In this document: piece after piece, positions 2 to 60,796 of the stretch
Position numbering within the stretch: position 1 is the stretch's first letter
Layout: the number at the start of each line of letters is the position of its first letter
Virus record (IMG/VR): IMGVR_UViG_3300037963_000751
Location: 1 to 60,796 of that record
DNA from: a virus
Taxonomy: Duplodnaviria; Caudoviricetes
DNA: 60,796 nt
Direction: 5' to 3' (one strand)
Translations under genes and position numbers: made by a program
Notes under the pieces: model-generated
Databases searched by the model: none
Told to the model about the DNA's origin: nothing
Seen by the model: the letters and a program-made list of their open reading frames with translations, nothing else

Positions 2-99
2 AAACTATATAAAAGCATCTAATCAATATGATGCTGATGAAAAAAAATATTATAAAGAATTAGCTGCATACACTCGAATGACACCTGAGCAAAAGGATT
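2..99. repeat. Terminal direct repeat (assembly overlap), identical to 60699..60796
   Basis: 98-bp identity between the window start and end (base 1 differs); the reading frame continues across the junction. Confidence 0.95.
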
Positions 100-3000
100 C
101 AGAACAAGGGGTGCTTTTAAGAGAAAGTTTAATTTCTCAAAAGAAAAATGTAGCTAAAGCAAAACAAAAGTTAGAGTTAGATAAAAAAAATATTGCTTCT
201 CGTAAAGAAGATATATATTATTTAGCAGGAAAATATGCCGAGTATCTTGACGACCCTAATAGAGGGAACTTGTCGGGTTCTTTATGGAATGCTTTTGCTC
301 AGTCATGGTCAAGCATGACAGCAGGTACAGTAGACTTGGCTTTATGGGGAGCAGAAAAAGTTTTTGGAAAGGATGAATTAGCTCCCGAACAAACAGACAT
401 ATATCATAGTAGTCAAATAAGAGAAACCCTTGACCCTTATTGGAAGAAAAAGTATGGGTATACATGGACAGACCAACTAAATAAAAATGCAGACAAAGGT
501 AATTATGATTACACTGCGGAACAAAAGGAGGAGGCTGACCAAATAATGCAAGAGTTCTCTCCCTTTAGTTATAGTTTAGTTCAGAAAGCTAATTTAGATA
601 AAGATGGCAGAGCTATCATAAGAGAAGTAAGAAAGGGTAGTAAGTTATGGGAAGGTCCTACCTCTGATAAGTGGACAGAAACATTTAAAGAAGAACAGCC
701 TTGGTATCTTGGTGGAGGTGGATGGCTACATGGTGTAGTAGAAACTTTACCGGCTATGCCTATGATGGCTACAGGATACAAGCAAGGTGGTAGTCTTTTT
801 ATGAAGGGAGCAAGGACTTTATTTTCATATAAGTCCATGCCTATGATTGCAATGAGTTATGATAGGAACATGCAAGAGATGGAAAAAAATCCTGCATTTA
901 AAAACGTATCATTAGATGAGAAGAGAGGTATCTCTACTCTTCTTGCTGTACCTGAAGCAGCACTTGAAAAAATAACTTGGGGCTCGGGACTATTAAATGC
1001 TAAGCCACAGATAGGAGCATGGATAGCAAAAAAAGCATTAGCAAAGAAAGGCTCTACCCTTGGAACAAAAGCTTATCAGAAAGCAGTAGTGGATGTTATT
1101 GAAAATAATTTAGCACGAGGTATTGTTAGAACATTAAGCACAGGAGCAGCAGAATTTGAAACAGGTTTAGCTCAAGAGATTACTTCAATGAGTATTAAAA
1201 ACTTTTATGATGATGCCAAAGGAAAGAAGATGTTTGATAACCCTCAGTTTTTTGGAGGGGATATGTTGGAGTTTACTAAGCAAGCTTTAAAGGGTGGATT
1301 CTATGAAATGTTAGGTGGTATAGTAATGGGTGTTCCTGCAGGAGTATCTACTTCTATGAACAAAAAAGATTTCTCTAAGATGGATGATGCTACGTGGGGA
1401 ATATTTAAACAGATAAAAGATAACCCACAGCTTTTAAAACTAACAGACCAAAAGTTTATACAAGAAATTTCTCTCGGTCAAATGACTCCTCGTCAAGCTT
1501 TAATGATTAAAGAAAATTATAAAGAAGCTACTAATCTTTATAATGAAATACCTGACGCTGAAAAATATACAGGAGACCAACAAAGAGAAATCATGGGATT
1601 GCTTTTAAGAAAGCATGAACTACAAAGAAGAATAGATAAAAAAGACAAAGCTTTATCGTCAAAAGATAAAGCAGAAATAGAAACTATTAATCAGAAGTTA
1701 GTTAACATTTCAGAAAGAGCAGGAGATATTAACTACACACTTGAAAAAATAGATGATGTTTATAAGAATGTTAAGGATGATGCGGAAGTAGAATTAGCAG
1801 CAGAAACATTAGAGGAAATCCCTGACATATACAAAGATAGAGCTGTAGAAAAAGACACAGGGGATATGGGAGAGGTTGAGATAGGGTCAACTATTACAGG
1901 ACTATCTATTGGAAAACAGAAGACTCCTTACACAGGAACATATTATACATATAAATTAACCGGTAAAGAATTAAACAATGCCATTCAAGAGCAAAGCACA
2001 GATTTCGTGGATGCGAATCAATCAGCCCCAAATGTACAAGAGATGGAGGGCGGAACATCCGAGACAGGACCTGAAGTCACTACCCCAAAAGAAGGGGAGC
2101 AAGTTAGCGAAGAGCAACAGGTCCAAAAGGAAAAGTTAAATAACCTTGGGTTTACTGATGAGGTAATAGAGATGATGACACCTGAAGATATTGAGGTGGC
2201 TCAAACATATACCGAACCTTCTCAAGCCACAGAGATGGTGGAGCGTTACCAAAAAGACATGGAAGCGGCTCAATCATTAGCGGCTGAAGATACAACCACA
2301 GAAGATAAACCATTAACTGCAGAAGATGTAGAGACAGTAGGTGTAGCAGGTCAAGTTACTCAACAGAATAGAGGAAACTTAGATGTTAATCCTGTACAGA
2401 AAAAAATTATTAGACAGGCAGAGAAAGCAGTGCAGTCTTTAAAAAAGATTATGCCTAATCTTCGCATCATTACTTATGCTACTGAAGCTGAATATGCAGC
2501 CGCAGTACCCAAATCAAAGATAGGAGAGCGAGGAGAAATATCTAATGATGGTAATACCATACGTATAAATCTTGCTGCGGCTGACGAGACTACAGTAAGT
2601 CATGAAATATTCCATGCTATTATTACAAGTAAGTTTAATATCAACAGCAAGAAGATAGCTACTGCAGTTAACAATGACTTGATAAAGAAGCTACTTAAAG
2701 TTCTTCCAAAGGATAAGTACAGAATGAATGTTGTTGATAAGATAACTAAGGAGAGAAAACAAATCTCTTTACATGAATACTTGGAGGAGTATGTGAAAGA
2801 ATATAAAGATACCGAAACACACAGTGAAGAAAAGCTTGCTCAGATATTTGGTTTTTTAGGTGCAAACTATAGTACCTTAACATACCAAGAGCAAAGTGTA
2901 ATTAAAAAGTTTATAAATAAAATTAAATCTTTGGTTGGTAGACAAGTAAAAGATGCAGGGTTTACAAAAGATGATGCTCGTGTTATTGACTTATTAAACT

Positions 3001-6000
3001 CATTAGCATACAAAGTAAAAGTAGGAGAGGAAGTACAGGAGGGAGACTTACAACTATTTGATGAGGTAGCAGAAGAGGTACAGGGTCAGCCCACTGAAAC
3101 AACTACTGAAGAGGTAGTAGAGGAGACACCTGCCGAAGAGGTGGTTGAGGAAGTAGTAGATGAAGCACCTGCTGAAACAACTATAGAGGAAATATTAGAA
3201 GAAGTTGAAAGGAATGAGAAGGGTGTGTTCACTGTGTTAAATGACCGAGCAACTACAAGGAAAAGAATTATTAAAAGGCAAAGTAGAGATGAAACTTGGA
3301 GTGAGACTGTCTATGATATATTTTTATATCCACAAGGGACAAAGGAGGATATTAGTAAACACCCTGTTGTTAAGGGAAGAAGAAAGAAAACTTATAATGA
3401 TTATAATAAATATAAGAAAGCATTACAGACTCAGTTGAATAAAAAAACAACTACTGAAGAAGCACCTGCTGAGGAGATGGTAACTGATGAAGAGTTTACG
3501 GAGTTTACAAATACAGGTAAGGTTGCTGATGAGGTGATAGAAAAGATAACTGAAAAAATAAAAAGAGGTGAACAGTTAACTCAAAGGGAGGAAGCTATAA
3601 GACAGGACAAGTCAAATGAAGTTGAGGCTAAGTTAAAAGAAACTACTGAGGAAGCACCTGCTGAGGAAGTAGTAGAGGAAATAGATAAAAAGGCAGAAGA
3701 GGTTTTAAATGAAACTAAAAAATTTATAGAGAGTTCTAAGAAGAGAAAATTAGGTGTGATAACCATTATCAAAAATGGTTCTTTCTATGATTATGATTTA
3801 AGAGATGATATTGAAAACCAACTTAAGAAGCTTACAGAGTTAGCGAGGGAGGTAGATGAAAAATATTATGCGGATATAACACGTGCAGAGATAGAGCTTA
3901 AAAAAGTTTATGTAAAGATGCATCAGGATTATTTAAAACGGCTTCAATCTCCTGCCGGAACGATAGATGACGCAATAACACGTGGAATTATAAACCCGAT
4001 AGAAAAAATTACAAGACAGAAACAACTGACCGCAAATAAATCAGACAATGTTTTTTTTGCAAAGCAAGAAATTAGAGATGTAAAAGAAGAAATAGAGAGT
4101 TTAAACAATCTTATAAAAGAAGTAAGTGAAGAAGCACCCACCTCACGTAAGCAGGTAGCTGCTAAGGAGTCAGTTGCTCCTATGAAAGTCAATGAGGAGT
4201 TCAGTAAGATGACACCTGAACAGAAAAGAAAACAACTTGGTGGTAGGTATGGTATCCTTAGTTTAGAATTAAAAAAGGGTTTGTTTTTTGCTGAACAACA
4301 ATACAAGAAACGAGATGAGTATGACAGGCTATCTAAAAGCAATAAGCTTAAAGACATGGACTTGTTTGCGAAGAAGTTTCAAGGCAATCCACCTATGACT
4401 GAGGCACAAATCTTTCTTAACTCAGGAGGATGGTATCGTGGTATAGATGGTGAGTATAGATATGAGATACCTGATGGCAAGTTAGCTAAAGGTAGCTATA
4501 AAGATTTTACACGAGCGTCTAAAGATGCTGCCACAAGAGAAGCAAGACTTGATGAGGTATATATAGCACCCGAAGTTTACAAAACATACCCATTTCTAAA
4601 AGACATCATGGTGCAGTTTACTGCTATGACTATAGAGAAAGATGAAGAGACTATTCCCAATAGAACTACAGTAGGCAGTTGGAATCCTGCTACTAAAATT
4701 ATAAAATTCAATACCAACTATTCAGAGTTTGCTAAAGCTACTCCTGAAGAACAAAGAAATGAAATCTTTTACACTATTGTTCACGAAGTTCAACATGCTA
4801 TTCAAGATTTTGAAGGTTTTGCTATGGGTGGAACAGATGTTGAAACAAAGGGTGGGCTTGGCAAGAGAGTAACAGAAGAATTTGGTAAAGGTAGAGAAAG
4901 ATTAACTAAAGAAAGAATCTTTGCGTCAGAAGCTCAGAAAGGATTAAAGAAAAAATATGAAAGGTTTAGAATAAACAATGAGTTTATTGACTATTTATCT
5001 GCAGCATTAAACAAACTTAAAAAGTTAGGAGAGAAAGATTTATATAACAAATTGCTGAAGAGTAAAAACAAAGGCAAAGACTTGGTTGACATAGTGCTAC
5101 AATACGAAGCCACTGATGCTACCATGAATAGAATATATAGAGAGATAAAGGAAGACGCAAGGTATTATAATAGAGAGTTAGGATATCCTGAGGTTAAGAT
5201 GACTCAAAAAAATCTTAAAGAGTTCTTTGATAACACCGATTATAACCGCCACATATTAGATGAGTATGGAATAAACAACGCACAGACAGGTTCACAAATA
5301 GATGCTATTCAAAAAAGTTTGCTTAAAAGGTTGAGGATGTATGATGCTTATAAGATGTATGAAAGAACATATGGGGAGATAGAAGCAAGGAATGTAGAGG
5401 AGCGAGCAAAAATAAAAAAAGAATTAGCTCGATATAAATCTGAGCTTGATAAACTTAACAGACTTGGAAAGAAAGAAGTTGCAAATGAAATATTTACAAA
5501 AGAACTATATGATTACCTATCAGAAAATGTCATAGATATAGAAGATGTGATAGGTGAAGGAGTTACATACGAAGATTTTAAAATATTTCTAAAGAACAAG
5601 TCGTACAGTAAAGAGATATACGAATATTTAACAATGAAAGACCCTAACTACTCACGAGATGTTACGTTAGGAGAGTTTCAACGTAATGTGGAGGGGCTTA
5701 CTACGGAAGAAAAAATACGAGAGATAGAAGAACAGTTGTATAAACAACTACCTACTGTTACCGAAGACTCAAAAGGATTAATAGAAGATATAGATAAAAG
5801 CGAGCAAGGTCCATACATAATGAAGTCATATCCTAAAGCAAAGCGTAAGCAAGTGGCTTCTAAACAGAAGGTAGAGATGACTACTCAAGAAGAGAATGCT
5901 AAGGCTAAAGAAAAGCTTGAGGGTATGAATCGTAAGCAACTACCTTCACCCAATGCATCTATGGAAGATGTTATTGCATGGGGTAGAAGCAGAGGTGAGA

Positions 6001-9000
6001 GTGATGCAGTTCTTAGAATGTTCTTGAAGTCAAGAGGTTATGGTACAATAAAAGAAATTAGAGAAGCCATGGCTCAGACTGTACAGATGGCAGCTATGCC
6101 ACCTGACTTAGCCAACATTGAGGGTGGTCTTGAGGTAGCTGAAAAAATGTACGAAGATATAATGACTAAGTTCTATGACGCTACCATGGAAACAAGAGAG
6201 GTCGTAGCTGAAAGTAAAAAGAGAATAGCTAAGGCTAAACGAGTAATGCAAAACAATCCTAAAGAGTATGGTAAAGAAAAGGATGGTGTGTTTACTAAAC
6301 CTAACGGGGATAAAGTTACTCTTGATATAACTAAAGCAAAGCGTGGTGTTAAGATAATAACAGCTACGCAAGTGTTAGGTGCTCCACGTACATCTATGGA
6401 AAGTGTATTCACTAAATCAAAAGCACAGAGACGAGCAATCTTGCAACAAATAATAGAGAGCAATGAAGATTATCAAAACCAAGATGAAATAAACAAAGCT
6501 AACATACAAAGACTTTTAGATAGAGCATTGAACACACGAGCCAACCCTTCAGTTGAGCAACGCATGAGAGATGTAAAGAGAATAGCTAAAGCTGCTGAAC
6601 AAAATGAAAAGAAACTTCAAGAGGTAAGAAATAGATTACGAGCATTGATACGTGAGTCTATACCAAGACATTTAGAAGATTCAACCACTACTAAAAACCT
6701 AAACGCCATGATTAAAAGCTTGGCTAAGGTAAACTCTACTAATGTTTTAGTGGAGACTGATAGGATATTGAAACAGATAGAAAGAATAAACAAAAAAGAA
6801 ATAAATTCTTTAAGAAAGAAAGCTTTAAAAATAATAAAGCAGAAGTCAAGTACTGCTAAGCAAGGAAAAACCACAGGGGTAGATGCAGAAACAAATATGT
6901 TTATGCAGGAGATTAAAAAGATATGGTTAAAAATGGACGAGCTTTTAAAAGAAGAAAATAGTGGTGAACTTATAGATGAATACTTAAATAAAATACAAGA
7001 AGAGTTAGAAGATGGGAAGAAGGTAGCAGACATAGACACCATTATAAAAAAGACTATAGATGGAGAGCCGCTTAATTCACAAGAGAAAAGAAAGCTATAT
7101 AAAAACTTTGCTTATGACATGATGTACACCTATCCATCACTTGACTATGAAGGAATGCAACTATTATACGAAGAGATAGCAGACTTAAAAGCTGAAGGAA
7201 TAGCTAAGTTTAAATCCAATAGAGAAGCAAGGGTTAAAAGAAATGCTAAGCTTGAAGCAGAAGCAGTAGAACAATTAAAACTAAAGTATCCTTTCTTGGT
7301 TAATGAGAATGGAGAATTTATGGATAATGAAGAAGTGCAATTAAAAAAAGCTAAGCTTCTTAATCAATGGAAAAAGACTCGTTCATTTAAAGCCATTAAA
7401 GATTGGAGTCGAATAGTTCTTAATAAAAAGAAACAGAAATCTTCCGAATGGCTTAGAGCTTGGTTAGCAACCAATGAAACTCTTAACAATGCTCTTGATA
7501 TGCAGGGGGTAGGTAAAAGTTTCTTTACAAAAAATGTTTATCAAAGACTTCGAGATATGAGAGATGTCTTTTTAAAAGGGCAACAGTCTGAACAGAAAAA
7601 GATGAACGAGATATTGAATGGTATACCTGCTATTGCAGAGAAAGTAAGCAGAAGAAAAAGTCCTTATGCTGTGCTTGTGGATATGCTTGCAGAAGGAGAC
7701 ATGGTAGATATTCAAGGAAACATATTTACTCCTGACGAAGCACTAAGAATCTATGCCTTATCTAAGAATGAAGTGCAGCGTGAAAAATTACAGATAGGAC
7801 AAGATAAAAAAGGTAGAGGAACATTTATAACAGACGCAGGACTACAAGAACTTGAAGCCCAACTACCCACTGCACTCAAACAGTATGCAGATGCAATGGT
7901 GGATTACCTGAGTAATGATTACTATAACAGCGTGAATGATGTGTACATGGATGTGAATAGTGCATCTCTTCCTTATGTAGAAAATTATTTTCCTACTAAA
8001 ACATACAACACTACAGCAGAAAGAAGTAGCATTGAAGAAAAATTACAAAAAGGAGACGTGAATTTTAATGCTGTGTTTAATGCACAAACAGCTCCTGCTT
8101 TAAACGCAAGAACAAATGTGACAGGAAGAATACCTCTTAAAGGATACACATTTACAGGAGAACTAAGCAATCACTTTGAACAAATGGAAAGGTTTAAAGC
8201 CTATGCTGAGGGAGTTAAAGTTATAAGAGATATTGTAAGTATGGATAGTGTTAACAGCGTTCTTGATGTTACAGGATTAAAACAGGTCTATCTTAGAAAC
8301 CTAATGACTACTATTAATCCTAATGCTTTTCAAGCAAGAGGACCTGAAAGTATTTTTGGAAAGGCTCTTAACAATTTCTCTTCATTTGTTTTAGGTTTTA
8401 AACTATGGCAGATTCCTAAGCAAGCTACCTCTTTTATAAATGCATTTGAAGAGTATGATTCAGGCTTAATAAAAAAAGACGTTGATGGTTTAGGATTAAC
8501 TAAGGGAGCGGCAGACATGGTGATGTTCATGATAGACATGGCAGCAACTACAGGTTCTTTAGCATTTGAGTTAATGCCTAAAGCACTAAGAGAAAGGTTA
8601 GGTATTCCTGATGGTCCTATATCTCAAGCGTACAAAATATCCCCCACCTTTAGAAACAGAATACAAGCAGCTATGGAGGGAGACTTGTGGGGACTTGAAT
8701 CAGGTTCTAAAATAAAATACAATAATGAAGCAAAGTCGGAGGGTATTATTCCTCGTAAACTAAAAATGCTACCGCAGAAAGCAAGAAAGTATGGGTCTTA
8801 TCCTACTATGCTTGGAGATGTTCTTGGAGTAATGGGATACATGATTAACTACAGAAGAGATATAAAAAATGGAATGAGTAAAGAGGAAGCATTAAGAAAG
8901 TTTAACAGATATGAAGCAACTCAGCAGACAAGAAGTGAAACAGAGAAGAATAGATTACAATTAGAAAGTAATGACATGTTAAGAGCGTTCACTATGTTTG

Positions 9001-9629
9001 GAAGCACACCATACTTACAGCAAAATAAAATAGCTCAAGCTTCAGCTAACATGATGCAAGCTATAAGTAGAGGTAAGATGCCACGTAAACAAGATATGCG
9101 TTCATTGATTCTTAACCTTGGTTTTGCTAACGTAGCATTCATCTATATGTCCAACATATTTAAGTATGCCTTTGGAGATGATGAAGATAAAGAAGAAGTA
9201 ATGAGACACATGAAAAAAGTAATGCTTGGCTTTAATTCCTTGACAGCTATACCTTATATTGGACCTACCATAAAAGCAATGGATAATTATTATACAACAG
9301 GCAAGGTGTGGTCTCAAGACTTAGGAGTCAATCCTTTTATGCAAGTGTGGAATAGATTCAGAAAAGCTTATGAAGGTAAGCTTGAATTTAAAAATCTTCC
9401 TAAAGATGTTATTAGTTTAATAGGAATAAACACCGACCCATTTGTAGCATTGTATAATAAGACAATAGGAGAGGGTGACTTCTTTGAAAAGGATGAAGAC
9501 TTCTATGACCTACGAGGTATAAGCAAATCATATAGACCTTCAGAGTCTAAGTATGAAGAAGGCTTTGAACCATTTGAAAAAACAGAAAGCTTTAAAACAT
9601 TTAAAGAGCTTGAGGAGGAAAACAAATAG
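78..9629 (+). CDS. Giant virion/ejection polyvalent protein, 3' part (true start at 59521; ~3601 aa in total); two zincin HExxH motifs and an LPD23-like domain
   Basis: HEIFH at 2601-2615 and HEVQH at 4782-4796; WYRGIDGEYRYEIPD and YERTYGEIEARNVEER motifs resemble LPD23/MPTase; last gene of the structural arm. Confidence 0.75.
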   Translation: MTPEQKDSEQGVLLRESLISQKKNVAKAKQKLELDKKNIASRKEDIYYLAGKYAEYLDDPNRGNLSGSLWNAFAQSWSSMTAGTVDLALWGAEKVFGKDELAPEQTDIYHSSQIRETLDPYWKKKYGYTWTDQLNKNADKGNYDYTAEQKEEADQIMQEFSPFSYSLVQKANLDKDGRAIIREVRKGSKLWEGPTSDKWTETFKEEQPWYLGGGGWLHGVVETLPAMPMMATGYKQGGSLFMKGARTLFSYKSMPMIAMSYDRNMQEMEKNPAFKNVSLDEKRGISTLLAVPEAALEKITWGSGLLNAKPQIGAWIAKKALAKKGSTLGTKAYQKAVVDVIENNLARGIVRTLSTGAAEFETGLAQEITSMSIKNFYDDAKGKKMFDNPQFFGGDMLEFTKQALKGGFYEMLGGIVMGVPAGVSTSMNKKDFSKMDDATWGIFKQIKDNPQLLKLTDQKFIQEISLGQMTPRQALMIKENYKEATNLYNEIPDAEKYTGDQQREIMGLLLRKHELQRRIDKKDKALSSKDKAEIETINQKLVNISERAGDINYTLEKIDDVYKNVKDDAEVELAAETLEEIPDIYKDRAVEKDTGDMGEVEIGSTITGLSIGKQKTPYTGTYYTYKLTGKELNNAIQEQSTDFVDANQSAPNVQEMEGGTSETGPEVTTPKEGEQVSEEQQVQKEKLNNLGFTDEVIEMMTPEDIEVAQTYTEPSQATEMVERYQKDMEAAQSLAAEDTTTEDKPLTAEDVETVGVAGQVTQQNRGNLDVNPVQKKIIRQAEKAVQSLKKIMPNLRIITYATEAEYAAAVPKSKIGERGEISNDGNTIRINLAAADETTVSHEIFHAIITSKFNINSKKIATAVNNDLIKKLLKVLPKDKYRMNVVDKITKERKQISLHEYLEEYVKEYKDTETHSEEKLAQIFGFLGANYSTLTYQEQSVIKKFINKIKSLVGRQVKDAGFTKDDARVIDLLNSLAYKVKVGEEVQEGDLQLFDEVAEEVQGQPTETTTEEVVEETPAEEVVEEVVDEAPAETTIEEILEEVERNEKGVFTVLNDRATTRKRIIKRQSRDETWSETVYDIFLYPQGTKEDISKHPVVKGRRKKTYNDYNKYKKALQTQLNKKTTTEEAPAEEMVTDEEFTEFTNTGKVADEVIEKITEKIKRGEQLTQREEAIRQDKSNEVEAKLKETTEEAPAEEVVEEIDKKAEEVLNETKKFIESSKKRKLGVITIIKNGSFYDYDLRDDIENQLKKLTELAREVDEKYYADITRAEIELKKVYVKMHQDYLKRLQSPAGTIDDAITRGIINPIEKITRQKQLTANKSDNVFFAKQEIRDVKEEIESLNNLIKEVSEEAPTSRKQVAAKESVAPMKVNEEFSKMTPEQKRKQLGGRYGILSLELKKGLFFAEQQYKKRDEYDRLSKSNKLKDMDLFAKKFQGNPPMTEAQIFLNSGGWYRGIDGEYRYEIPDGKLAKGSYKDFTRASKDAATREARLDEVYIAPEVYKTYPFLKDIMVQFTAMTIEKDEETIPNRTTVGSWNPATKIIKFNTNYSEFAKATPEEQRNEIFYTIVHEVQHAIQDFEGFAMGGTDVETKGGLGKRVTEEFGKGRERLTKERIFASEAQKGLKKKYERFRINNEFIDYLSAALNKLKKLGEKDLYNKLLKSKNKGKDLVDIVLQYEATDATMNRIYREIKEDARYYNRELGYPEVKMTQKNLKEFFDNTDYNRHILDEYGINNAQTGSQIDAIQKSLLKRLRMYDAYKMYERTYGEIEARNVEERAKIKKELARYKSELDKLNRLGKKEVANEIFTKELYDYLSENVIDIEDVIGEGVTYEDFKIFLKNKSYSKEIYEYLTMKDPNYSRDVTLGEFQRNVEGLTTEEKIREIEEQLYKQLPTVTEDSKGLIEDIDKSEQGPYIMKSYPKAKRKQVASKQKVEMTTQEENAKAKEKLEGMNRKQLPSPNASMEDVIAWGRSRGESDAVLRMFLKSRGYGTIKEIREAMAQTVQMAAMPPDLANIEGGLEVAEKMYEDIMTKFYDATMETREVVAESKKRIAKAKRVMQNNPKEYGKEKDGVFTKPNGDKVTLDITKAKRGVKIITATQVLGAPRTSMESVFTKSKAQRRAILQQIIESNEDYQNQDEINKANIQRLLDRALNTRANPSVEQRMRDVKRIAKAAEQNEKKLQEVRNRLRALIRESIPRHLEDSTTTKNLNAMIKSLAKVNSTNVLVETDRILKQIERINKKEINSLRKKALKIIKQKSSTAKQGKTTGVDAETNMFMQEIKKIWLKMDELLKEENSGELIDEYLNKIQEELEDGKKVADIDTIIKKTIDGEPLNSQEKRKLYKNFAYDMMYTYPSLDYEGMQLLYEEIADLKAEGIAKFKSNREARVKRNAKLEAEAVEQLKLKYPFLVNENGEFMDNEEVQLKKAKLLNQWKKTRSFKAIKDWSRIVLNKKKQKSSEWLRAWLATNETLNNALDMQGVGKSFFTKNVYQRLRDMRDVFLKGQQSEQKKMNEILNGIPAIAEKVSRRKSPYAVLVDMLAEGDMVDIQGNIFTPDEALRIYALSKNEVQREKLQIGQDKKGRGTFITDAGLQELEAQLPTALKQYADAMVDYLSNDYYNSVNDVYMDVNSASLPYVENYFPTKTYNTTAERSSIEEKLQKGDVNFNAVFNAQTAPALNARTNVTGRIPLKGYTFTGELSNHFEQMERFKAYAEGVKVIRDIVSMDSVNSVLDVTGLKQVYLRNLMTTINPNAFQARGPESIFGKALNNFSSFVLGFKLWQIPKQATSFINAFEEYDSGLIKKDVDGLGLTKGAADMVMFMIDMAATTGSLAFELMPKALRERLGIPDGPISQAYKISPTFRNRIQAAMEGDLWGLESGSKIKYNNEAKSEGIIPRKLKMLPQKARKYGSYPTMLGDVLGVMGYMINYRRDIKNGMSKEEALRKFNRYEATQQTRSETEKNRLQLESNDMLRAFTMFGSTPYLQQNKIAQASANMMQAISRGKMPRKQDMRSLILNLGFANVAFIYMSNIFKYAFGDDEDKEEVMRHMKKVMLGFNSLTAIPYIGPTIKAMDNYYTTGKVWSQDLGVNPFMQVWNRFRKAYEGKLEFKNLPKDVISLIGINTDPFVALYNKTIGEGDFFEKDEDFYDLRGISKSYRPSESKYEEGFEPFEKTESFKTFKELEEENK
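1978..2139 (+). CDS. Nested +1-frame small basic protein, 53 aa (MPFKSKAQISWMRINQPQMYKRWRAEHPRQDLKSLPQKKGSKLAKSNRSKRKS)
   Basis: ATG at 1978 after an AT-rich leader, TAA at 2137-2139; resembles small phage proteins beginning MPFKSxAQ (recalled, not searched). Confidence 0.6.
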   Translation: MPFKSKAQISWMRINQPQMYKRWRAEHPRQDLKSLPQKKGSKLAKSNRSKRKS

Positions 9630-9646
9630 CTCGTTGACGAGCTATT
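9625..9646. repeat. Dyad motif copy AATAGCTCG-TTGA-CGAGCTATT; supplies the TAG stops of both convergent genes
   Basis: Read directly; TAG at 9627-9629 (+) and at 9642-9644 (-). Confidence 0.9.
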
Positions 9647-27651: not shown

Positions 27652-29265
27652 ATGCAACAACATGGATACAATCCGAAGGAGTTAAACTTCGGAGAGGAAG
27701 GACGAAAGAAGTTAGAAAGCGGAATCACGAAACTCGCTAATGCTGTAAAGAGTACTCTCGGTCCTCGAGGGAACACAGTATTAATTGAATCACCACATCA
27801 CACATCAGGTATCACAGTTACTAAAGATGGTGTCACTGTAGCTAAGTCAATAGACTTGGTAGACCCGGTGGAGAATCTCGCAGTCAAGATAATGAAAGAG
27901 GCTGCGGATAGGACTGCGACTCTTGCAGGAGATGGAACGACTACAGCGATAGTATTAGCTGAAGCTATTATTAATATTGGTAATAAATATATTACTGACA
28001 AACATAATCGTACGGAGGTACTAAGAGAGTTAGTCTCGGCAAAAGATTATGTGGTTGAGATGTTAGCTAAAGATTCTTTGAGTATAACTGACAAGACATT
28101 GAAAGATGTGGCTATAGTATCAGCGAACAATGATACTGAGGTGGGAGAGTTGATAACTGAAACTTATCTTGAGGTAGGCAAGGATGGTCTTGTTACAGTA
28201 GAGAAGGCACAGGGTGCTGAGACTTATTATGAAACCACTAAAGGTTTACAAGTTGATAGAGGTTACATGTCAAACATGTTTGTGAACAATCACAAGAATG
28301 ATGAGTGTATATTAGAAGATGTACATATATTAGTATCTGACTCAGAGATAAGTAGTATCATGCAGATTGATGGTGTATTGAAACCATTGGTAGCTGACCG
28401 ACATAATATAAAGTTATTAATCATTGCACCTTGCTCCAAGGAAATGGAGAATACTCTAACGGCTAATGTAGTAAAGAATGGTTTAAAGATATGTTCTATA
28501 CCACCTCCCAACTTTGGATACAAACAACATGAGTTGATGAGCGACATTGCTGTGTCAGTAGGAGCGACATACTTCAGTGAGAAGACAGGAGATGATTTAA
28601 GTCTTATCGAGTTCAGCGACTTGGGTAAAGCTAAGAAGGTTATAGTGGGTAGGTCAAAGACAGTTATCATTAATAATGATGATGAGGATTTGGTATACAA
28701 GAGAGACCTGAGAGTTGAGGAGCTATGGGTTCAACATAATAATACAAAGAAGAAAGCAGATAGGGATTTTATAAAATCTCGAATTGCCACCCTTACGGGT
28801 GGCGTGGGTGTCATACATGTAGGAGGAGACACTGACATAGAGCAGAAAGAATTATATGATAGAGTTGATGATGCAGTATGTGCTGTTCGAGCTGCACTAA
28901 GTGAAGGGATACTTCCGGGAGGAGGAGTTGCTTTGATGAGATATGCTGATATGTATAATCGCATGGACCACCAAAACAAAAACATAAAGGCAGCTATACA
29001 GATAATGTCTGAAGCGTTAATGGCTCCTGTCATACAGATACTTACTAACGCAGGGAAAAACTTTGAGGATATATATACAGAGATACCAAAGAAGAACCAT
29101 GGCTATGATGTGAAGAATGAAAAGAAAGGGGACTTGATAAAGATGGGAGTAATAGACCCATCCAAAGTAACAAGGTCTGCTCTTATCAATGCTATGTCTG
29201 TAGCGACAACAATACTAAGTACAAATGCAATCGTAACAATGGCGAGAAGTTATGAAACCAATTAA
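27652..29265 (+). CDS. groEL: Chaperonin GroEL (phage-encoded)
   Basis: TLGPRG, VTKDGVTVAK, AGDGTTTA, GGGVAL, GVIDP. Confidence 0.97.
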   Translation: MQQHGYNPKELNFGEEGRKKLESGITKLANAVKSTLGPRGNTVLIESPHHTSGITVTKDGVTVAKSIDLVDPVENLAVKIMKEAADRTATLAGDGTTTAIVLAEAIINIGNKYITDKHNRTEVLRELVSAKDYVVEMLAKDSLSITDKTLKDVAIVSANNDTEVGELITETYLEVGKDGLVTVEKAQGAETYYETTKGLQVDRGYMSNMFVNNHKNDECILEDVHILVSDSEISSIMQIDGVLKPLVADRHNIKLLIIAPCSKEMENTLTANVVKNGLKICSIPPPNFGYKQHELMSDIAVSVGATYFSEKTGDDLSLIEFSDLGKAKKVIVGRSKTVIINNDDEDLVYKRDLRVEELWVQHNNTKKKADRDFIKSRIATLTGGVGVIHVGGDTDIEQKELYDRVDDAVCAVRAALSEGILPGGGVALMRYADMYNRMDHQNKNIKAAIQIMSEALMAPVIQILTNAGKNFEDIYTEIPKKNHGYDVKNEKKGDLIKMGVIDPSKVTRSALINAMSVATTILSTNAIVTMARSYETN

Positions 29266-37392: not shown

Positions 37393-37956
37393 ATGCGTTC
37401 ACCTGAAAGGTTTATAGTTCGTCCTTATAATGGGAGGAGGTATGACAATATAAAAAATGTAGAAGGAGTCAATGTAATCATTGGAACTTCAGAAGAAAAC
37501 TATAAAGTTTCTAATAGAGAAGCTGAGGTAATATCTGTACCTTTAAACTATAAAGGAGAGATAGAGCCCGGAGATACTTTGCTTGTTCACCATAATGTCT
37601 TTAAGTTTTATAATGACATTAAAGGTAGAAGGAGAAGTGGTAGAAGTTTTTTTAAAGATGATTTGTTCTTTATTGAGGACGACCAATTTTTTATGTATAA
37701 AAAAAATGGTAAATGGAAGGCTTATGGAAAGAATTGTTTTATAAAACCTTTACCCAAAAAAGATACAGACATATATAAGACAGGGCAATACGAACCTTTA
37801 ATAGGAACTATTAAATATATTAATGAAGATTTAAAAAACTTTGGACTTAAAGAAGGGGATGAAGTAGGGTTTGAACCTGAGAGTGAGTATGAGTTTAGGG
37901 TAGATGGCGAAGTATTGTACAGAATGTTTACTAACAATATAACATTTTTAGTGTAA
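37393..37956 (+). CDS. Tandem GroES-like domain protein
   Basis: IEPGDTLLVHHN and LKEGDEVGF...YEFRVDGEVLYRM halves. Confidence 0.6.
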   Translation: MRSPERFIVRPYNGRRYDNIKNVEGVNVIIGTSEENYKVSNREAEVISVPLNYKGEIEPGDTLLVHHNVFKFYNDIKGRRRSGRSFFKDDLFFIEDDQFFMYKKNGKWKAYGKNCFIKPLPKKDTDIYKTGQYEPLIGTIKYINEDLKNFGLKEGDEVGFEPESEYEFRVDGEVLYRMFTNNITFLV

Positions 37957-42934: not shown

Positions 42935-44038
42935 ATGGAAATAAAAGTAAGAGAAATTAGTGGAGGTGAAAGTAAAAGCGTACAAGAAGTAGAAAAGGAA
43001 TTGCTTGAAAAGCATGAAGAAAAAATGCAAGCTGAAGAAGTTAATAACGATTCAGTAAATGTAACGCAAGAAACAGAGACGCAAGAAGCAGAACCAAAAC
43101 AAGAAACATCCTTAACGGATGAAGAAGTTCTTTCATATATTGGAAAAAGATACGGAAAAGATATTAACTCATTTGATGAGTTAATGCAGGAGCGTGAGAC
43201 ATCAGAAGAATTACCTGAAGATGTAGCCGCTTACTTTAAGTATAAAAAAGATACAGGTCGTGGCATGGATGATTATGTTAAGTTACAACGAGACTTTGAC
43301 TCCATGGAAGACGACACTTTGTTAGCTGAGTATTATCTAAGTACAGAAGAAGGTATAGACCGAGATGATGTAAAAGATATGATAGACGAGTATTCATATG
43401 ATGAAGACATTGATGAAGATAAGTTTATTAGGAAACAAAGACTATCAAAGAAAAAAGAAATTGCTAAAGCTCGAAAGTATTTTACTGAGCAGAAGGAGAC
43501 ATATAAACAACCACTTGAGTCAAGTTCGGTTGGGGTGTCTACAGAAACACAGGAACAACTTGATGAGTATAAGCGATACTTAGCGGATGCTAAAAACTAT
43601 GAGGAGGAGACTAAACGTAAATCAGAATGGTTTACTAAGAAAACAAATGATGTCTTTAATAATGAGTTCAAAGGTTTTGAGTTTAATATTAATGATAAAA
43701 ATTTTCAATATTCTCCCGGAGACCGAGAAGAATTAAGAAAGGCTCACTCAACTCCTATGAATTTTTATTCAAAGTTCTTGGATGACAATGGTCTTTTAAA
43801 TGACGCAGAAGGTTATCATAAGTCCTTAGCTATTGCTATGAATCCTGAAAAGTTTGCTAAGTTCTTTTATGAGCAAGGCAAGGCTGAAGCGGTTGATGAT
43901 GTAATGCGTAAACAAAAGAACGTCAGTATGACAACACGCAGAACACCTGAGACAGTCAGTAAAGATGGATTAAAAGTTCGTGCTATAAACTCGGATTCGG
44001 GTAGAGGCTTACGAATTAAAAGTATAAAACGAGGTTAA
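42935..44038 (+). CDS. Capsid scaffolding protein (probable)
   Basis: Acidic and helical; between portal and capsid; TAACTTTG box at 42910. Confidence 0.7.
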   Translation: MEIKVREISGGESKSVQEVEKELLEKHEEKMQAEEVNNDSVNVTQETETQEAEPKQETSLTDEEVLSYIGKRYGKDINSFDELMQERETSEELPEDVAAYFKYKKDTGRGMDDYVKLQRDFDSMEDDTLLAEYYLSTEEGIDRDDVKDMIDEYSYDEDIDEDKFIRKQRLSKKKEIAKARKYFTEQKETYKQPLESSSVGVSTETQEQLDEYKRYLADAKNYEEETKRKSEWFTKKTNDVFNNEFKGFEFNINDKNFQYSPGDREELRKAHSTPMNFYSKFLDDNGLLNDAEGYHKSLAIAMNPEKFAKFFYEQGKAEAVDDVMRKQKNVSMTTRRTPETVSKDGLKVRAINSDSGRGLRIKSIKRG

Positions 44039-48195: not shown

Positions 48196-49119
48196 ATGGC
48201 ATATTTAACTCAATACCAATATTACGAGAACGGAGGTAACTTACCTGAGAATGCTAATTGGGGTTCATACCAATACGTTAGTTTAGAAGATGTTGTTAAC
48301 AACTTTATGTTAATGTATAATGGGAACCATGAGTTAGTTAATAACGAAGAAAGATATAAGGTTTTATTTCACGCAAAGAGAGCTATACAAGAATTAAACT
48401 ATGATGCGTTTAAAGAAATTAAAACATTAGAGCTTACAGTGTGTGATACATTAAGATTTGTATTGCCTTCTGATTATGTTAATTGGGTTCGTATATCTTT
48501 ATATAAAGACCAAGTACTAAGACCTCTTACTGAGAATATTCAAATCAACGGAGCGACAGCATATCTACAAGACAATGATTGTAGAATATTGTTTGATGCA
48601 AGTGGTAATGCATTATCACCGCAAAACTCTCAACTTGATTACGACAGAATAACAGGGTCAAAGAAAAGCATTTACTTAAATGAGAATAGTCCTTATAATG
48701 GTAGACAAGGATATTGTTGTGATGGTGTGTGGTATTTTGAATATAATATTGGAGCAAGGTTTGGATTAAACACAGAAACCGCTAACTTTAATCCTACGTT
48801 TAGAGTAGATAATAAAGCAGGAGTAATAAACTTTAGCTCAGGTGTAGCAGGAGAAACTATTATTTTAGAATATGTGTCAGATGGTATGGAAGGTGGTATT
48901 GATTCTAATGTTACAGTTAATAAATTATTTGAGGATTACATATATGCATACATTCAATATGCTATTTTAAATAGTAAATTAGGTGTGCAGGAATACATAG
49001 TAAGACGAGCACAGAAAAGTAAATCAGCTTTGCTTCGTAATGCTAAGATTAGAATAAGTAATATTCATCCGGGTAGACTCTTAATGAATCTACGAGGAAG
49101 AGATAAATGGATTAAATAG
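48196..49119 (+). CDS. Tail ring/tubular structural protein (probable)
   Basis: LPSDYVNWVR, ILEYVSDG; position. Confidence 0.65.
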   Translation: MAYLTQYQYYENGGNLPENANWGSYQYVSLEDVVNNFMLMYNGNHELVNNEERYKVLFHAKRAIQELNYDAFKEIKTLELTVCDTLRFVLPSDYVNWVRISLYKDQVLRPLTENIQINGATAYLQDNDCRILFDASGNALSPQNSQLDYDRITGSKKSIYLNENSPYNGRQGYCCDGVWYFEYNIGARFGLNTETANFNPTFRVDNKAGVINFSSGVAGETIILEYVSDGMEGGIDSNVTVNKLFEDYIYAYIQYAILNSKLGVQEYIVRRAQKSKSALLRNAKIRISNIHPGRLLMNLRGRDKWIK

Positions 49120-49120
49120 A

Positions 49121-52100
49121 ATGCCGAACATTCAAAGAAATTTTATAAAAGGTAGAATGAACAAGTCTATTGACGAAAGACTTGTAGCTAACGGAGAATA
49201 CATTGATGCAATGAATGTCCGTCTTGGTTCTACAGAAGATACTGAGATTGGTTCAGTAGAAAACTCTAAAGGTAATACTGCTTTAAGTGATATTACTTAT
49301 AACTCAGTTGCATTAAGTGATGATGCCAAATGTATCGGAGCCTTTGAAGATGGAGCAAGAGAAACAATTTATTGGTTTGTTACTGACCCAAACTTTTCAG
49401 GTAGTACTAACACAGGGAAGTTAGATTTAATTTTATCTTTTAATGTAGCTACAAGTTTATTAACCTATCATGTGATTAGCATTGATGATGGTGGTGGTGT
49501 TAATACAACTTTAAACTTTAATTCTAAATATCTTATTACAGGAGTAGATATGGTAGAGGATTTATTATTCTTTACAGATGATTACAATCCTCCTCGTAAA
49601 ATAAATATTACAAGAAACTATGCAGACCCTAATCCCATAGGAAGTGGAGTAGATGAGTCTACATTAGCAGATGATTTACTTGTAATTAAAGCTCCGCCTG
49701 TAATGGCTCCGAAGTGGAGTTTCCCCGGAGCTAATGCACCTAATCAAGAAAACTATATTAAGGAAAGATTTATTTGTTTTGCGTATAGATACAGATATGC
49801 GGATGGAGAATATAGTGCTACGTCTCAATTCTCAAAGGCAGCATTCTTAGCTTCTAATTATTCTATTGATAGTACAAGTTATTTAAACACAGGAATGACA
49901 AACTTGTATAATCAAGTAGATGTTTCTTTTAATGCAGGAGGTCCTCTTGTAAAAGATATAGAATTGTTATTTAAAGATTCAGATAGTTCTCTTATAAGAG
50001 TTATAGAAAAATTTAATAAAGCAGAAGAAGGGTGGTTAGATAATGTAGATTATACTTATAGGTTTAACAATAGTAAAACCTATACTGTTTTATCAAGCTC
50101 AGAGATATTAAGACTATATGATAACGTGCCACGATTTGCAAAGGCACAAACAATAATGGGTAATAGACTAATGTATGGTAACTATATAGATGGTTATGAT
50201 TTAAAAGATGCTAATGATAATCCTATTAAGTTAAACTATACTACTGAGGTGGTGCAAAGTGCTGTTATAATAGAAGAGTTTGAAGCTAATTTAATTCAAC
50301 TTGTAGATGTAGACTATACAGTGTTTACTCCTGTAACAATAAACAATGCAGGATTTACTATTGATTTAACAGGAAAGCTTTTAAATGAAGGAGCGGTATT
50401 ATCTTTTACCATAAGGTTTAGACATGATTCATTTGCAGGCACATCTCCTCCTACTGAGATTACAGGGAATGTAGATATAGATGTTTCTTTTATTTTACAG
50501 CAAGACTATCCTTCGGTATATGACCTTGCAACAAGCCCTGAGTTTTTAGCAGCAATAGGAACTAATGCTACCATACAACCATTTGCAGACGCATGTCTTG
50601 GGACAACTCTTACAGATGAGATGAATTGTTTGATACCTCAAAACCTTGGGGCATATAGCAAAGTGGATAGTGGTATATCAGCTATAGGACAAGCTATTGA
50701 TATTATTGCTAATCCGGGTAGTAATATTATACAGTTAGATTTAGTTGCAGCTTATTATGTAAATGGTGCGATTAATCTATATGAATATTATGAGATACAA
50801 TTTGTGGATGCGTTTTGGCAAACCACTGACAATCTTAGAAGCCTTCATAGTGATAGAGATTATGAGGTAGGTATTGTATACATGGATAATTTTAATCGAG
50901 CTACTACTGCGTTAGTTAGTGAGTTCAATACTGTGCATGTACCCTGTGGTAACTCAGGAGGAAAGAATCAAATATTTGCAACCCTGCCGGTAGATATGCT
51001 TGCTCCAAAATGGGCAACAAGATACAAGTGGGTAGTTCAAGAAAACGTACACAAGTATGAGACTATATATAGTTTATTCTTTGTAGAAGAAGTAGATACA
51101 AATTCAATATGGTTTTTACTTGAGGGTGAGAATGCAGCTAAAGTAAATAAAGGAGATAGGTTAAAAGTAAAAGCAGATAGTAGTGGTGCAGTCAATGGAT
51201 GTGTATGGACTACAATCCTTGATAAAGAAGCTAAGCCTGCTGACTTTACTTTAGACCCTGCAGACCCTCCTCAGTTTGGGGTTAAGTCTCCATCAGGAGT
51301 ATATGTAAAAGTAAACCCGAACAACTTTGATGCTGTCTATGATAGTAACTCTATAATAGATTTAGGTAAACGTCAATTTGAACAAAAAGATAAAGGAGAA
51401 TATCCTCAACTAAAATATTTTCTTAACTTAAACAATTCCACACAAGACTTTGATATTCCTGTAGGTAGTACAATTAGAATGAACATTGAGTTTAGTAGAG
51501 AGGGTAAGGGTAGTAAATGTGGAAAAGATAGTTACTATTATGACAAGTCTTTTGTTTCATCTCAGAACTATGATAATTTTTATGATTGGTTTGTAGGAGA
51601 TGGAGTGAATTTAACGACAGGTGATTGTGAAGTTAACAACGGGGAGACATGTAACTCTAACATTTTTAATACCAATCCTCCTCCTCCTTCCGGAGCAGGT
51701 ACAGGTACAGGTAATATAACTGCAGAAAACTCTAAAAATTTCTATCAATTTTTTAGAGCGACTCCGACTCACCCAACAAATCCTAATGCTTTGGTATTTA
51801 TGATGTCTTCAGGTACTCCTACTTGTTCAGGTTCAAGCGATAAAAGACACTCATGGATTAAGTGTCAGATAGAAGTATTTAGAGCATCAAGTCAATTTGT
51901 TTTTGAAACAGAACCTGTAGAGACTACACCCGACCTTTACTATGAGGGGAACATGACTTACTTTATAGATGCGAATGGATACCACTTAACAACAAATCCG
52001 GATAGCCCTGATAACCAAGACCAAACTGCAACACAACAAGGAGAAGTTTATCTTGACTTCTTTAATTGTTTTGCTTTTGGAAATGGGGTAGAGAGTTATA

Positions 52101-53734: not shown

Positions 53735-53743
53735 TAAAATAAT

Positions 53744-54700: not shown

Positions 54701-54704
54701 AGAT

Positions 54705-55082
54705 ATGAGTAATTATAATAAACCAAGTTTAAGAAAAAGAATAGTAGCTCAAGTAACCCGAGGAACTAAAGGGGGTAAAGCCGGACAATGGTCTGCTCGT
54801 AAAGCACAGCTTGCAAAAAAAAAATATGAAGCAGCAGGCGGAGGATATAGAGGAGCTAAAACTAAAAAACAAAAAAGTTTATCTGAGTGGACTAAACAGA
54901 AGTGGACTACAGCAAGTGGTAAGCCTTCAAGTAAGACAGGAGAAGTATATGCTCCTAAGAAAACTATAGATAGATTAAGAGGTACAAGTAAGTTAGCTAA
55001 AGCAAATAGAATAAAAAGAAAAGCAACTCGTGCAGGAAAGCAACACGCTAAGCATGGTTTGCATAAAGGTAAAAAAAGATAG
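54705..55082 (+). CDS. Basic protein (DUF5872-like)
   Basis: GTKGGKAGQWSARKAQL...YEAAGGGY...WTKQKW. Confidence 0.7.
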   Translation: MSNYNKPSLRKRIVAQVTRGTKGGKAGQWSARKAQLAKKKYEAAGGGYRGAKTKKQKSLSEWTKQKWTTASGKPSSKTGEVYAPKKTIDRLRGTSKLAKANRIKRKATRAGKQHAKHGLHKGKKR

Positions 55083-55084
55083 TT

Positions 55085-59520: not shown

Positions 59521-60796
59521 ATGAACGAGGAAGCATTACAAAGATTTTATGAGCTGTTTCAAGCAGATGGATATGGAGATTCATTCGAGGACTTCCGACA
59601 ATTAATGTTACAGAATGAGGAAGCTCAAAGAGCTGCTTATGAATTGGCGTTAGGAGATGGGTACGGAGATTACTTTGATGACTTCAAAGTGTTAGTGGGA
59701 GCAAAGGAAAGTGAAGAAGAGTTGCAGCGTACTCGAGATGAGCAAAGAAAGATGGAAGAGCGTGATGCAATGGAAGCATTGTTATTAAAAAAAAAAAGAG
59801 ATGCGGAATCGTCATTGGAAGGTTCTTCTTCGGAATCACCTACGGCTAAAGACTATTATAAATTTATGGGTCCTCAAAGTGAGGAGGATAAATCTGAGAT
59901 AGGCGTACAAAAAGGAGAGGGGGTAATGGATTTACCTACCTCAACAGAAGCTGTTCAAGAAATTTATACAACTGATTCAGGTGTAACTATGCCAAGTAAA
60001 GCTATTGGTATAGGATTTTTGTCTAAAGAATTTCCATTAAGCTTTGAGGGTGCAGATGAGAGAACTCGATTGCTTCTAAGTAAAATGCCAAGAGAAGAGC
60101 TGCATAGATATGAAACTCTTTTAAAGGACAAGAACGAGGCATATCAAAAAATACCTAACGTAAAATATACCGAAGTAACACCTGAATATAAAAACTTTCA
60201 GAAGTTAGATAACTTAACTCGAAAGATAGAAGAAGATTATTTAGAGGCTAAGGTTTATGACTATGGAGAACCTATTAAAAAACAAACACTTACTAAAGAA
60301 GAACAGCAATTTACTTCAGACTTAGCTGCTTATAATAAACAATTAAAGGAAGAAAGTAGAGATTTTTTTGAAGAGTCTGTTGATGAATATATAACTAAAG
60401 ATTTAATAAGTAGTGAAGAAGAGGAAGTCGTTTCCTTTTTAAACAATCAATTTGGTGATGTTGGTTTTGGGTTTGAAGAGACCGGAATAATGGATGCCAT
60501 GATAGTTACTGCTCCCAATGGTGCGACTAAAGAAATAGATTTAGACACCATCATGAGTGATGACGAAGAAAAGGAGAAGCTAAAAACTTTTATGAAGAAC
60601 AATCGTCCGTCTGAAAAGATAGACAAGGTTAAGCTTCAAAGGTATGAAGACCAAGAAGATTTAGATGAAGGACTGTTTGAAATAGAAAACCTAAACAAAA
60701 ACTATATAAAAGCATCTAATCAATATGATGCTGATGAAAAAAAATATTATAAAGAATTAGCTGCATACACTCGAATGACACCTGAGCAAAAGGATT
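59521..60796 (+). CDS. 5' part of the giant protein (MNEEALQRFYELFQADGYGD...), continuing into 78..9629
   Basis: Open frame to the window end; 60775 corresponds to the ATG at 78, in frame (418 codons). Confidence 0.85.
   Translation, partial: MNEEALQRFYELFQADGYGDSFEDFRQLMLQNEEAQRAAYELALGDGYGDYFDDFKVLVGAKESEEELQRTRDEQRKMEERDAMEALLLKKKRDAESSLEGSSSESPTAKDYYKFMGPQSEEDKSEIGVQKGEGVMDLPTSTEAVQEIYTTDSGVTMPSKAIGIGFLSKEFPLSFEGADERTRLLLSKMPREELHRYETLLKDKNEAYQKIPNVKYTEVTPEYKNFQKLDNLTRKIEEDYLEAKVYDYGEPIKKQTLTKEEQQFTSDLAAYNKQLKEESRDFFEESVDEYITKDLISSEEEEVVSFLNNQFGDVGFGFEETGIMDAMIVTAPNGATKEIDLDTIMSDDEEKEKLKTFMKNNRPSEKIDKVKLQRYEDQEDLDEGLFEIENLNKNYIKASNQYDADEKKYYKELAAYTRMTPEQKD
60699..60796. repeat. Terminal direct repeat (assembly overlap) of 2..99
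   Basis: Sequence identity. Confidence 0.95.

Follow-up and report, generated by a model that had tools for sequence, protein, structure and literature searches.

Rickettsia palindromic elements are short DNA units that occur inside many open reading frames (ORFs), where they lie in-frame and add a peptide spacer to the host protein; to our knowledge, no conserved gene is encoded by them in any other frame. A small phage gene lying within a larger one is familiar from the embedded spanin genes of the Rz1-inside-Rz type (PMC6139136, in part), and in the overprinted genes of small viruses one stretch of DNA specifies two proteins that are under asymmetric selection (PMC8227390 and PMC3494269, each in part). 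Here we describe a small gene nested in a very large one in a virus of the Caudoviricetes (Duplodnaviria), IMG/VR record IMGVR_UViG_3300037963_000751, of which the whole stretch of 60,796 nucleotides was analyzed and is called the window. The ORF at 1978..2139 (+ strand; 53 codons plus TAA) lies in the +1 frame of a giant gene that encodes a 3601-amino-acid protein, and homology, conservation and selection together indicate that it is very probably a real protein-coding gene.

A preliminary description of this DNA, made from the letters alone, had pointed to a 53-codon ORF hidden in the +1 frame of the giant gene and overlapping an acidic segment of the host protein. The ORF was recovered exactly, in coordinates and in translation: positions 1978-2139 on the + strand read, from ATG to TAA, MPFKSKAQISWMRINQPQMYKRWRAEHPRQDLKSLPQKKGSKLAKSNRSKRKS, and translation verified both the +1 frame and the acidic host segment. 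The nested gene spans host residues about 1052-1107 of the giant protein. Its peptide is strongly basic, with 16 Lys plus Arg residues versus 2 Asp plus Glu, and the host-frame linker that covers it, NAIQEQSTDFVD...QKEKLNN (1977..2144, + strand, 56 codons), is net acidic, with 12 Asp plus Glu residues in the segment ending KEKLNN versus 3 Lys plus Arg. The length of the ORF by itself is not beyond chance; its peptide sequence is. There are three off-frame ORFs of at least 40 amino acids on the same strand within the giant gene, the longest of 65 amino acids. The other +1-frame ORFs, at 3241-3438 (65 codons) and 4729-4872 (47 codons), do not match the family profile described below, and their translations resemble frame noise.

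The peptide belongs to a family with the pattern MPFKSKAQ..WM..N.P.M.K.W..E.P...LP followed by a basic tail. The preliminary description had mentioned free-standing small phage proteins of the type MPFKSxAQ..WM..N.P, and such proteins do exist, both among phmmer hits and in contig scans. A phmmer search with the 53-amino-acid peptide against 1.84 billion representatives returned 52 hits at E<=1e-3, of which 31 are, by inspection, proteins of the MPF.S..Q family (best E 7.4e-11); the remaining 21 are accidental matches, being translations of a repeat (FIPAGAGNT...PRWRGEH). The 31 family hits have the motif at or close to their N-terminus; most are 42-85 amino acids long, and a few are longer (120-980 amino acids) and carry the motif as an N-terminal domain. 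A profile built from 38 unique free-standing members gave the nested ORF 71.1 bits (E 2.4e-21), and the runner-up among 425 six-frame ORFs of the window had E=2; a profile of 19 proteins found by phmmer only gave the nested ORF 75.2 bits. Residues 13-53 of the nested peptide alone scored 41-46 bits against free-standing profiles (46.3 bits with the 19-protein profile), so the match exceeds the N-terminal octapeptide. Hundreds of homologues were found overall, since a profile search of a 5.8-billion-protein collection returned 561 clusters at E<=1e-5, all of them called "hypothetical protein" where they are named. In an alignment of 105 members, Met1-Pro2 is invariant (105/105) and nine positions, M1, P2, F3, K4, S5, K6, Q8, P17, and W23, are invariant or at least 90% conserved; all nine are present in the nested peptide, and the members share a length class of 40-70 amino acids and a basic tail. 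Family members are also found in genomes of 58-65% G+C.

Matches to phrog_1375 at E<=0.01 were obtained for 48 of the 105 aligned family members and for 13 of the 18 free-standing proteins tested, and by these profile matches the family overlaps PHROG 1375, to which the nested peptide itself is linked only transitively. The 18 free-standing proteins had no match in Pfam, and a tblastn search of the GenBank phages with the nested peptide found no match. The same kind of search with P0050 reached a hypothetical gene beside the holin in Streptomyces phage FlowerPower and its kin at E 8e-3, too weak to be accepted, and the string "MPFKS" in one phage paper is an unrelated C-terminal string. Among the longer proteins of the family (P0109, P0152, P0169, P0084, P0200, and L187) and the other domain fusions, proteins of 120 amino acids are joined to DUF5661, with its HELEH motif, and others have glycine-zipper-like or membrane-like C-terminal segments.

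Relatives of the giant gene were sought by scanning metagenomes with a 200-residue host segment, using two patterns, of which YTY[KT]LTGK falls outside the overlap. The scan yielded 17 loci, of which 16 extend past the site and the 17th is cut by the contig end. In 16/16 of the former, a +1 ATG stands at the same place and opens a frame of 43-53 codons that encodes an MPFKSK... peptide, the closest relative retaining 49 of the 53 residues. The preliminary description had named a lack of homologues and a +1 frame broken by stops in close relatives as the outcome that would speak against the gene; instead, homologues are numerous, and the start codon and the open frame were found in every locus that reaches past the site. 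Relatives of the window host segment were also sought among viral contigs, where none was found, and blastn of window positions 1500-2700 against the GenBank phages gave no match. When the host motif was searched for as DNA (NAIQEQ[ST]T) in viral contigs, 95 stretches were obtained, with the ATG in 94 and a family ORF in 91; the four without a family ORF comprise a chance hit outside a long frame, a 14-codon ORF, and an unrelated 94-codon ORF in two copies. A scan for the peptide motif MPFKSKAQxxWM, which leaves the host frame free, found at least 119 stretches in viral contigs, in which a script identified 117 matches. Of these matches listed, 50 lie within a host frame of 150 codons or more, always in its +1 frame and never in the other frame of the same strand; another 26 are free-standing, 12 stand at the start of a protein of at least 100 amino acids, and 29 are ambiguous, mostly through short chance overlaps or contig edges. 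Over all loci gathered there are at least 166 unique DNA copies, of which at least 113 are nested.

Copies also occur in GenBank records. In Flavobacterium phage vB_FspP_elemoF_6-3D (NC_055853.1), the family profile found a copy at 52379-52513, inside gp18 (48718-59802), a gene annotated as "structural protein," and another inside a 3859-amino-acid gene of MW202828.1. The nested ORF of gp18 has 42 codons. No small coding sequence is listed at the nested copy in gp18, so that the supposition that annotation misses such genes is borne out by the record of a cultured phage. At host residue 1089 of gp18, 132 codons upstream of the intact copy, there is a second motif, DAVQKQ, over which the +1 frame reads MPFKSKKLMK and then a stop codon; this is apparently a decayed second copy. 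In two marine metagenome runs, several otherwise unrelated contigs match only the first ~40 nucleotides of the nested ORF (1964-2018); the ends are loose on either side, and depth spikes there at up to 166. Many co-occurring phages thus have nearly the same DNA at the 5' end of the nested gene.

The frame under selection was determined from a minimum spanning tree of 61 unique complete nested copies; substitutions were counted over its 60 edges, with the first eight codons excluded because they are fixed by the search pattern. Within the overlap, small-frame codon positions 1, 2, and 3 had 271, 253, and 472 differences, and in the flanks host codon positions 1, 2, and 3 had 517, 362, and 715 differences upstream and 651, 353, and 1198 downstream. 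Substitutions that are synonymous in the small frame and change the host protein occurred at 2.26 times their opportunity, and the reverse class at 0.79 times. Codon periodicity and the synonymous classes together imply that the reading frame seen by selection switches inside the overlap. Consistent with this, whatever the level of nucleotide identity, the small frame retains a higher amino-acid identity than the host frame (0.53 versus 0.36 at about 60% nucleotide identity), and conservation of the host frame in the overlap equals that of the third, non-coding frame. An alignment guided by the host peptide had the same outcome, with 1551, 716, and 734 differences at host positions 1, 2, and 3 (pairs of 75-99% identity). 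These substitution patterns show that, in the overlap, it is the small frame on which purifying selection acts, and that the host frame is only kept open. The constraint on the nested frame and the reduced freedom at host synonymous sites are seen in the depleted reverse class and in the shift of the third position, which follows the nested frame inside the overlap and returns to the host frame outside it.

The recurrent acidic linker is a product of this arrangement. By the genetic code, MPFKSKAQ read one base earlier forces the host peptide [NDHY]-A-[ILVF]-Q-x-[QEK]-[SG]-[TPAS]: the codons ATG CCN TTY AAR WSN AAR GCN CAR become xAT GCC NTT YAA and so on, and a Lys codon in the small frame turns into one for Glu, Gln, or Lys in the host frame. 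TTT is forbidden at Phe3 of nested copies because the host frame would gain a TAA. In 113 unique nested copies, the host codon lying over the AT of the ATG is AAT in 70, GAT in 31, and TAT in 12, while the small-frame Met is constant; similarly, the host frame alternates between Ile and Val and between Glu and Lys where Pro and Lys of the small frame stay, and shows Gly, Glu, Val, or Ala after the conserved Trp. In free-standing copies, TTT is frequent and the host-type frame closes after three codons. The motif [NDY]AIQ[EK]Q.. was found in 9 of 29 other giant homologues, in keeping with the earlier statement that AIQEQST-type linkers recur in giant phage proteins, and the suggestion that this motif is the shadow of a nested gene is upheld by the forcing through the code, by the N/D/Y variation at a constant Met, and by the better conservation of the small frame. 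Two codon counts were not used as independent evidence. The excess of TTC at Phe3 (112 of 113 nested copies; the non-nested ones have 22 TTC and 17 TTT) is a consequence of how "nested" is defined, given that TTT makes a host TAA, and the codon counts at Pro2 were set aside because they are biased by the first search pattern.

An in-frame TAA at 1972-1974, two codons upstream of the nested ATG, makes this ATG the only possible start. It is preceded by an A-rich leader inside the host coding sequence, AAATTAACCGGTAAAGAATTAAACA (1953..1977, + strand), with A at -3 as had been noted and with no Shine-Dalgarno motif, like other gene starts of the window, whose real genes have A/T-rich leaders lacking such motifs. 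Shine-Dalgarno-free, A/T-rich leaders are expected for Bacteroidota. The leaders of 63 nested copies have 70-100% A at most positions from -13 to -1 and likewise lack a Shine-Dalgarno motif. The 60-nucleotide context of the nested start has a predicted minimum free energy of -1.8 kcal/mol, which places it among the least structured 4.5% of 269 ATGs of the giant gene (mean, -7.6 kcal/mol; the mean for 21 real + strand starts is -3.0), and its upstream A content is 0.60 versus 0.37. The composition and the low predicted structure of 1953-1977 match those of real gene starts of this phage and suggest that this leader serves as an initiation site, at which ribosomes would start independently on the late mRNA, at an internal ATG, through an A-rich, unstructured, Shine-Dalgarno-free context. 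Such a context could be written into Lys, Glu, Asn, and Thr codons of a host protein. Among the matches listed, 45 of the 50 nested ones lie in loci of 30-44% G+C, and the three at 62-65% G+C probably have frames open by chance. A start that requires no more than an A-rich, open context may explain why nested copies occur mostly in A+T-rich phages of the Bacteroidota type.

Alternative explanations of the locus were weighed against a coding role. Because an acidic linker rich in Glu, Gln, Val, and Gly rarely yields stops in its +1 frame, the ORF might encode nothing, and the presence of three off-frame ORFs of at least 40 amino acids in the giant gene, one of them of 65, together with the reciprocal relation that the genetic code sets up between Lys-rich and Glu-rich frames, speaks for such a chance origin. 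This account is nevertheless almost vanishingly improbable, given that the peptide scores 71-75 bits against free-standing proteins, that every other ORF of the 425-ORF window set has E>=2, that the other two off-frame ORFs match nothing, and that the ATG is kept in 16/16 loci though the host residue shifts among Asn, Tyr, and Asp, with third-position variation tracking the small frame. An artefact of gene calling, a variant of the same idea, fits neither the free-standing copies, in which the host-type frame closes after three codons, nor the members at 58-65% G+C. It is also very unlikely that the object of selection is the host linker motif (NAIQEQST...EVGLQEV...) or a DNA or RNA signal, with the +1 ORF as its shadow. 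The motif is strikingly recurrent, and the first ~40 nucleotides of the ORF hardly differ among many unrelated contigs from the same metagenomes, as such a model would have it; but conservation of the host frame does not exceed that of the third frame, differences concentrate at host codon position 1 (1551 versus 716 and 734), host residues vary (N/D/Y, I/V, E/K, and G/E/V/A) where those of the small frame do not, and free-standing copies keep the peptide without any host frame. A pure nucleotide signal would, moreover, give no three-base periodicity in the small frame.

A programmed +1 frameshift in the giant gene would join its first ~1050 residues to the basic tail and would produce no independent 53-amino-acid protein. 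In its favor, the nested frame is always +1 to the host (50/50 among the matches listed), and internal initiation is itself a step predicted from the nucleotide sequence. The TAA two codons before the ATG is hard to accommodate, as is the upstream open stretch of typically 0-12 codons in most relatives, which means that a frameshift would have to happen right at the ATG. Met1-Pro2 is invariant in all 105 aligned members, free-standing genes start at the same Met, no slippery motif was seen by eye in the leaders, and the start context resembles that of real starts, all of which leaves the frameshift with very little probability. Finally, the nested copies might be silent passengers, recent insertions that are decaying while the gene works only where it is free-standing. 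Both the decayed second copy in elemoF gp18 and the lack of the gene from some related phages speak for this model, but purifying selection was measured among the nested copies themselves, the window genome has a nested copy only, and the free-standing profile still recognizes 87 of 91 unique nested peptides (E<=1e-3); we consider it extremely unlikely.

Some observations weigh on the other side and temper the conclusion that 1978-2139 is a protein-coding gene. The nested peptide itself has no Pfam or PHROG match at E<=1, phrog_1375 included. The coding status comes from sequence analysis, from which translation of the nested ORF is predicted, and the +1 frame of a linker rich in Glu, Gln, Val, and Gly opens more easily than average, which makes openness weak evidence. 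The motif scans were derived from the nested ORF itself, fix the first 8-12 codons, and favor family members, and the sequences are related, so that the counts are not those of independent events. Nor is the gene universal in the lineage: it was found in none of four phages (0/4), namely Maribacter phage Panino and the Cellulophaga phages phi38:1, phi46:3, and Calle_3. As to function, the guess presented below is based on gene position, and structure searches match only uncharacterised phage proteins.

The small gene is a unit that changes place between phages. In phages whose capsid-like protein is ~50% identical to that of the window, it lies in an N-terminal linker, 26-69 codons into the gene of a ~400-amino-acid protein, between the portal and capsid genes. 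This ~400-amino-acid host protein, which has no Pfam or PHROG family, is homologous (33-40% identity) to the scaffold-position protein of the window (42935..44038, + strand), whose gene lies between the portal and major-capsid-like genes and has no nested copy. In L172, L173, and L213, the small gene is free-standing directly after a giant gene that is homologous to the C-terminal third of the window protein and has the same phosphoesterase, helicase, and phrog_28855 neighbors, and in L149, L189, and L205 it is likewise free-standing after the giant gene. In L149, the giant homologue can be aligned to the window protein before and after the linker (633-1001 and 1191-1413), and at the linker site it has only a 46-residue spacer, with a +1 frame full of stops and no nested ORF; the small gene of L149 starts two bases past the stop codon of the downstream ORF of the split giant gene. 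Nothing comparable to a free-standing copy lies downstream of the giant gene in the window, where the nested copy is the only family copy in the genome. Among hosts that carry the same subtype of the peptide, the flanks are unrelated, and homology is confined to the stretch from the ATG to the stop codon; these boundaries identify the small ORF as a conserved unit that changes place. On this comparison of loci, the small gene is shown to be the older unit within the group of Flavobacteriaceae-type podophages, and L149 seems to be better accommodated by insertion into an existing linker than by gene fusion across the linker. No repeats or enzymes indicative of a mobility mechanism were noticed, although no search was directed at them. 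We tentatively suggest, as a possibility that is rather more likely to be wrong than right, that the gene travels as a stowaway cassette, in which the stop-free -1 reading would provide a harmless spacer, the start would function without a Shine-Dalgarno motif, and repeated moves among at least three positions would have created the AIQEQST linkers. More boldly, the peptide and the linker that share this DNA, one basic and the other acidic, would be functional partners.

AlphaFold2, supplied with 105 sequences, predicted a structure with a mean predicted local distance difference test score of 77 (83-92 over the first 30 residues). In the model, helices at residues 6-15 and 17-26 form a helical hairpin built around the conserved W/M/N/P/W residues, and the LP motif and a disordered Lys/Arg-rich tail follow. 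In the PDB, a profile search turned up nothing but spurious repeat matches to designed proteins, and Foldseek found no match there and only uncharacterised phage proteins in BFVD, at E>=0.035. The sites of the gene are always in late or structural modules (the giant gene, the scaffold-position gene, or near portal, head, tail-fibre, or sheath genes), and this constant position leads to the guess of a small assembly or internal-virion protein. On this weakly held view, the small basic product would act with the giant or scaffold proteins, in assembly or inside the virion; its N-terminal hairpin would dock to a partner, and its basic tail would bind nucleic acid or acidic linkers. Complex prediction with the peptide and the major-capsid-like and scaffold-position proteins returned a score of 0.00, which is evidence neither for nor against such contacts.

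The giant gene runs off the 5' end of the window. Its ORF is open at the 5' end and is listed from 3 (5' open) or 78 to 9629 (3..9629, + strand), and it covers residues 394-3601 of the multi-domain protein, whereas residues 1-425 are encoded at 59521..60795 (+ strand). Since the last and first ORFs of the window thus share 32 residues, the contig is circularly permuted; it is labelled linear and 65% complete, and looks like a probably complete genome. The giant protein has HExxH-type motifs, SHEIFHAI (~2640-2670) and VHEVQHAI (~4750-4790), which suggest zincin-like domains, and, as regards a possible place among the large polyvalent proteins, its sole match in Pfam is LPD23, near these motifs (host residues 1449-1468 of P0002), at 21.4 bits, under the 27-bit cut-off; some giant homologues carry PF18838 or PF18760 in precomputed tables. 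It shows mosaic homology to the gp18 "structural protein" of elemoF and to the giant protein of MW202828, and its relatives include one that is 72% identical, one that is 44% identical, and many that are distant. The label "virion gene" given to it in the preliminary description is plausible from its position and from the annotation of a distant homologue. Directly past its stop codon, at 9630-9646, is a perfect short hairpin, AGCTCGT-TGA-CGAGCT, which is terminator-like and lacks a clear T run, and 3' of the giant gene are a convergent metallophosphoesterase gene, a helicase gene, and a primase-helicase-like gene. PHROG matches in the window include terminase, portal, a major-capsid-like "virion structural protein," other structural proteins, and GroEL/GroES; the phage encodes a GroEL-like chaperonin (27652-29265; phrog_5725, E 1.7e-125) and a GroES-like co-chaperonin (37393-37956; phrog_13932). 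The capsid-like protein is 66% identical to that of uncultured podovirus MW202828, 49% to that of Maribacter phage Panino, 44% to those of Flavobacterium phages of the genus Elemovirus, and 38% to that of Cellulophaga phage phi38:1, identities that mark the window as a podophage of the Flavobacteriaceae type.

No description of the family or of the overlap was found in full-text literature, a search in which subscription journals and supplementary tables (virion proteomes, for example) are little covered, and the part of PMC7077304 available mentions neither the elemo phages nor overlaps. Nested genes in large double-stranded DNA phages are almost never annotated, and this family has at least 113 distinct nested copies. 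For makers of domain models or linker libraries, it matters that an AIQEQST... linker is the out-of-frame reading of another gene. The gene can be studied in a cultured and non-pathogenic system, Flavobacterium sp. BAL314 with the elemo phages, where a single base change would kill the nested start and be silent in the host frame. A reversed overprinting, in which the same gene is nested in different hosts or free-standing in close relatives, also amounts to a natural experiment on the origin of overlaps.

Nested phage genes are a known kind; what is new here is an old and constrained nested partner that is found in several unrelated hosts as well as free-standing, and whose presence explains a linker motif. 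Members of DUF3008 (PF11450) are small viral or bacterial proteins with an MP.KSKAQ-like start. Among Pfam-bearing clusters, this one came closest by language-model features (score 0.85), a lead only, and because none of the 105 family members (0/105), nor the nested peptide, matches DUF3008 at E<=1, membership is unconfirmed and we do not claim it. The free-standing MPFKSKAQ proteins and PHROG 1375 are the closest described relatives, with the same N-terminus, W/M/N/P/W core, LP motif, basic tail, and length class, but they stand alone, whereas the window copy and at least 113 unique others are nested out of frame in large genes. Rz1 of the lambda type resembles the window gene in being contained entirely within a larger gene, read from the same strand in the +1 frame, and in being missed by standard gene callers. 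Products of the Rz1 type, encoded in the lysis cassette, are lipoproteins of the outer membrane that have a signal peptide and a lipobox Cys. The nested peptide, in contrast, contains neither a Cys nor a hydrophobic N-terminal stretch, which speaks against an embedded o-spanin of the Rz1 type, and it is hosted by a giant gene of the structural module. In classical overprinting, the nested frame is young and arose de novo, whereas here the nested gene is old and has free-standing homologues, the linker is derived and barely constrained, and the same nested gene recurs in several unrelated host contexts. In this last respect the locus is like the Rickettsia palindromic elements, as a short unit that lies inside different ORFs without breaking them and adds a spacer to the proteins that they encode.

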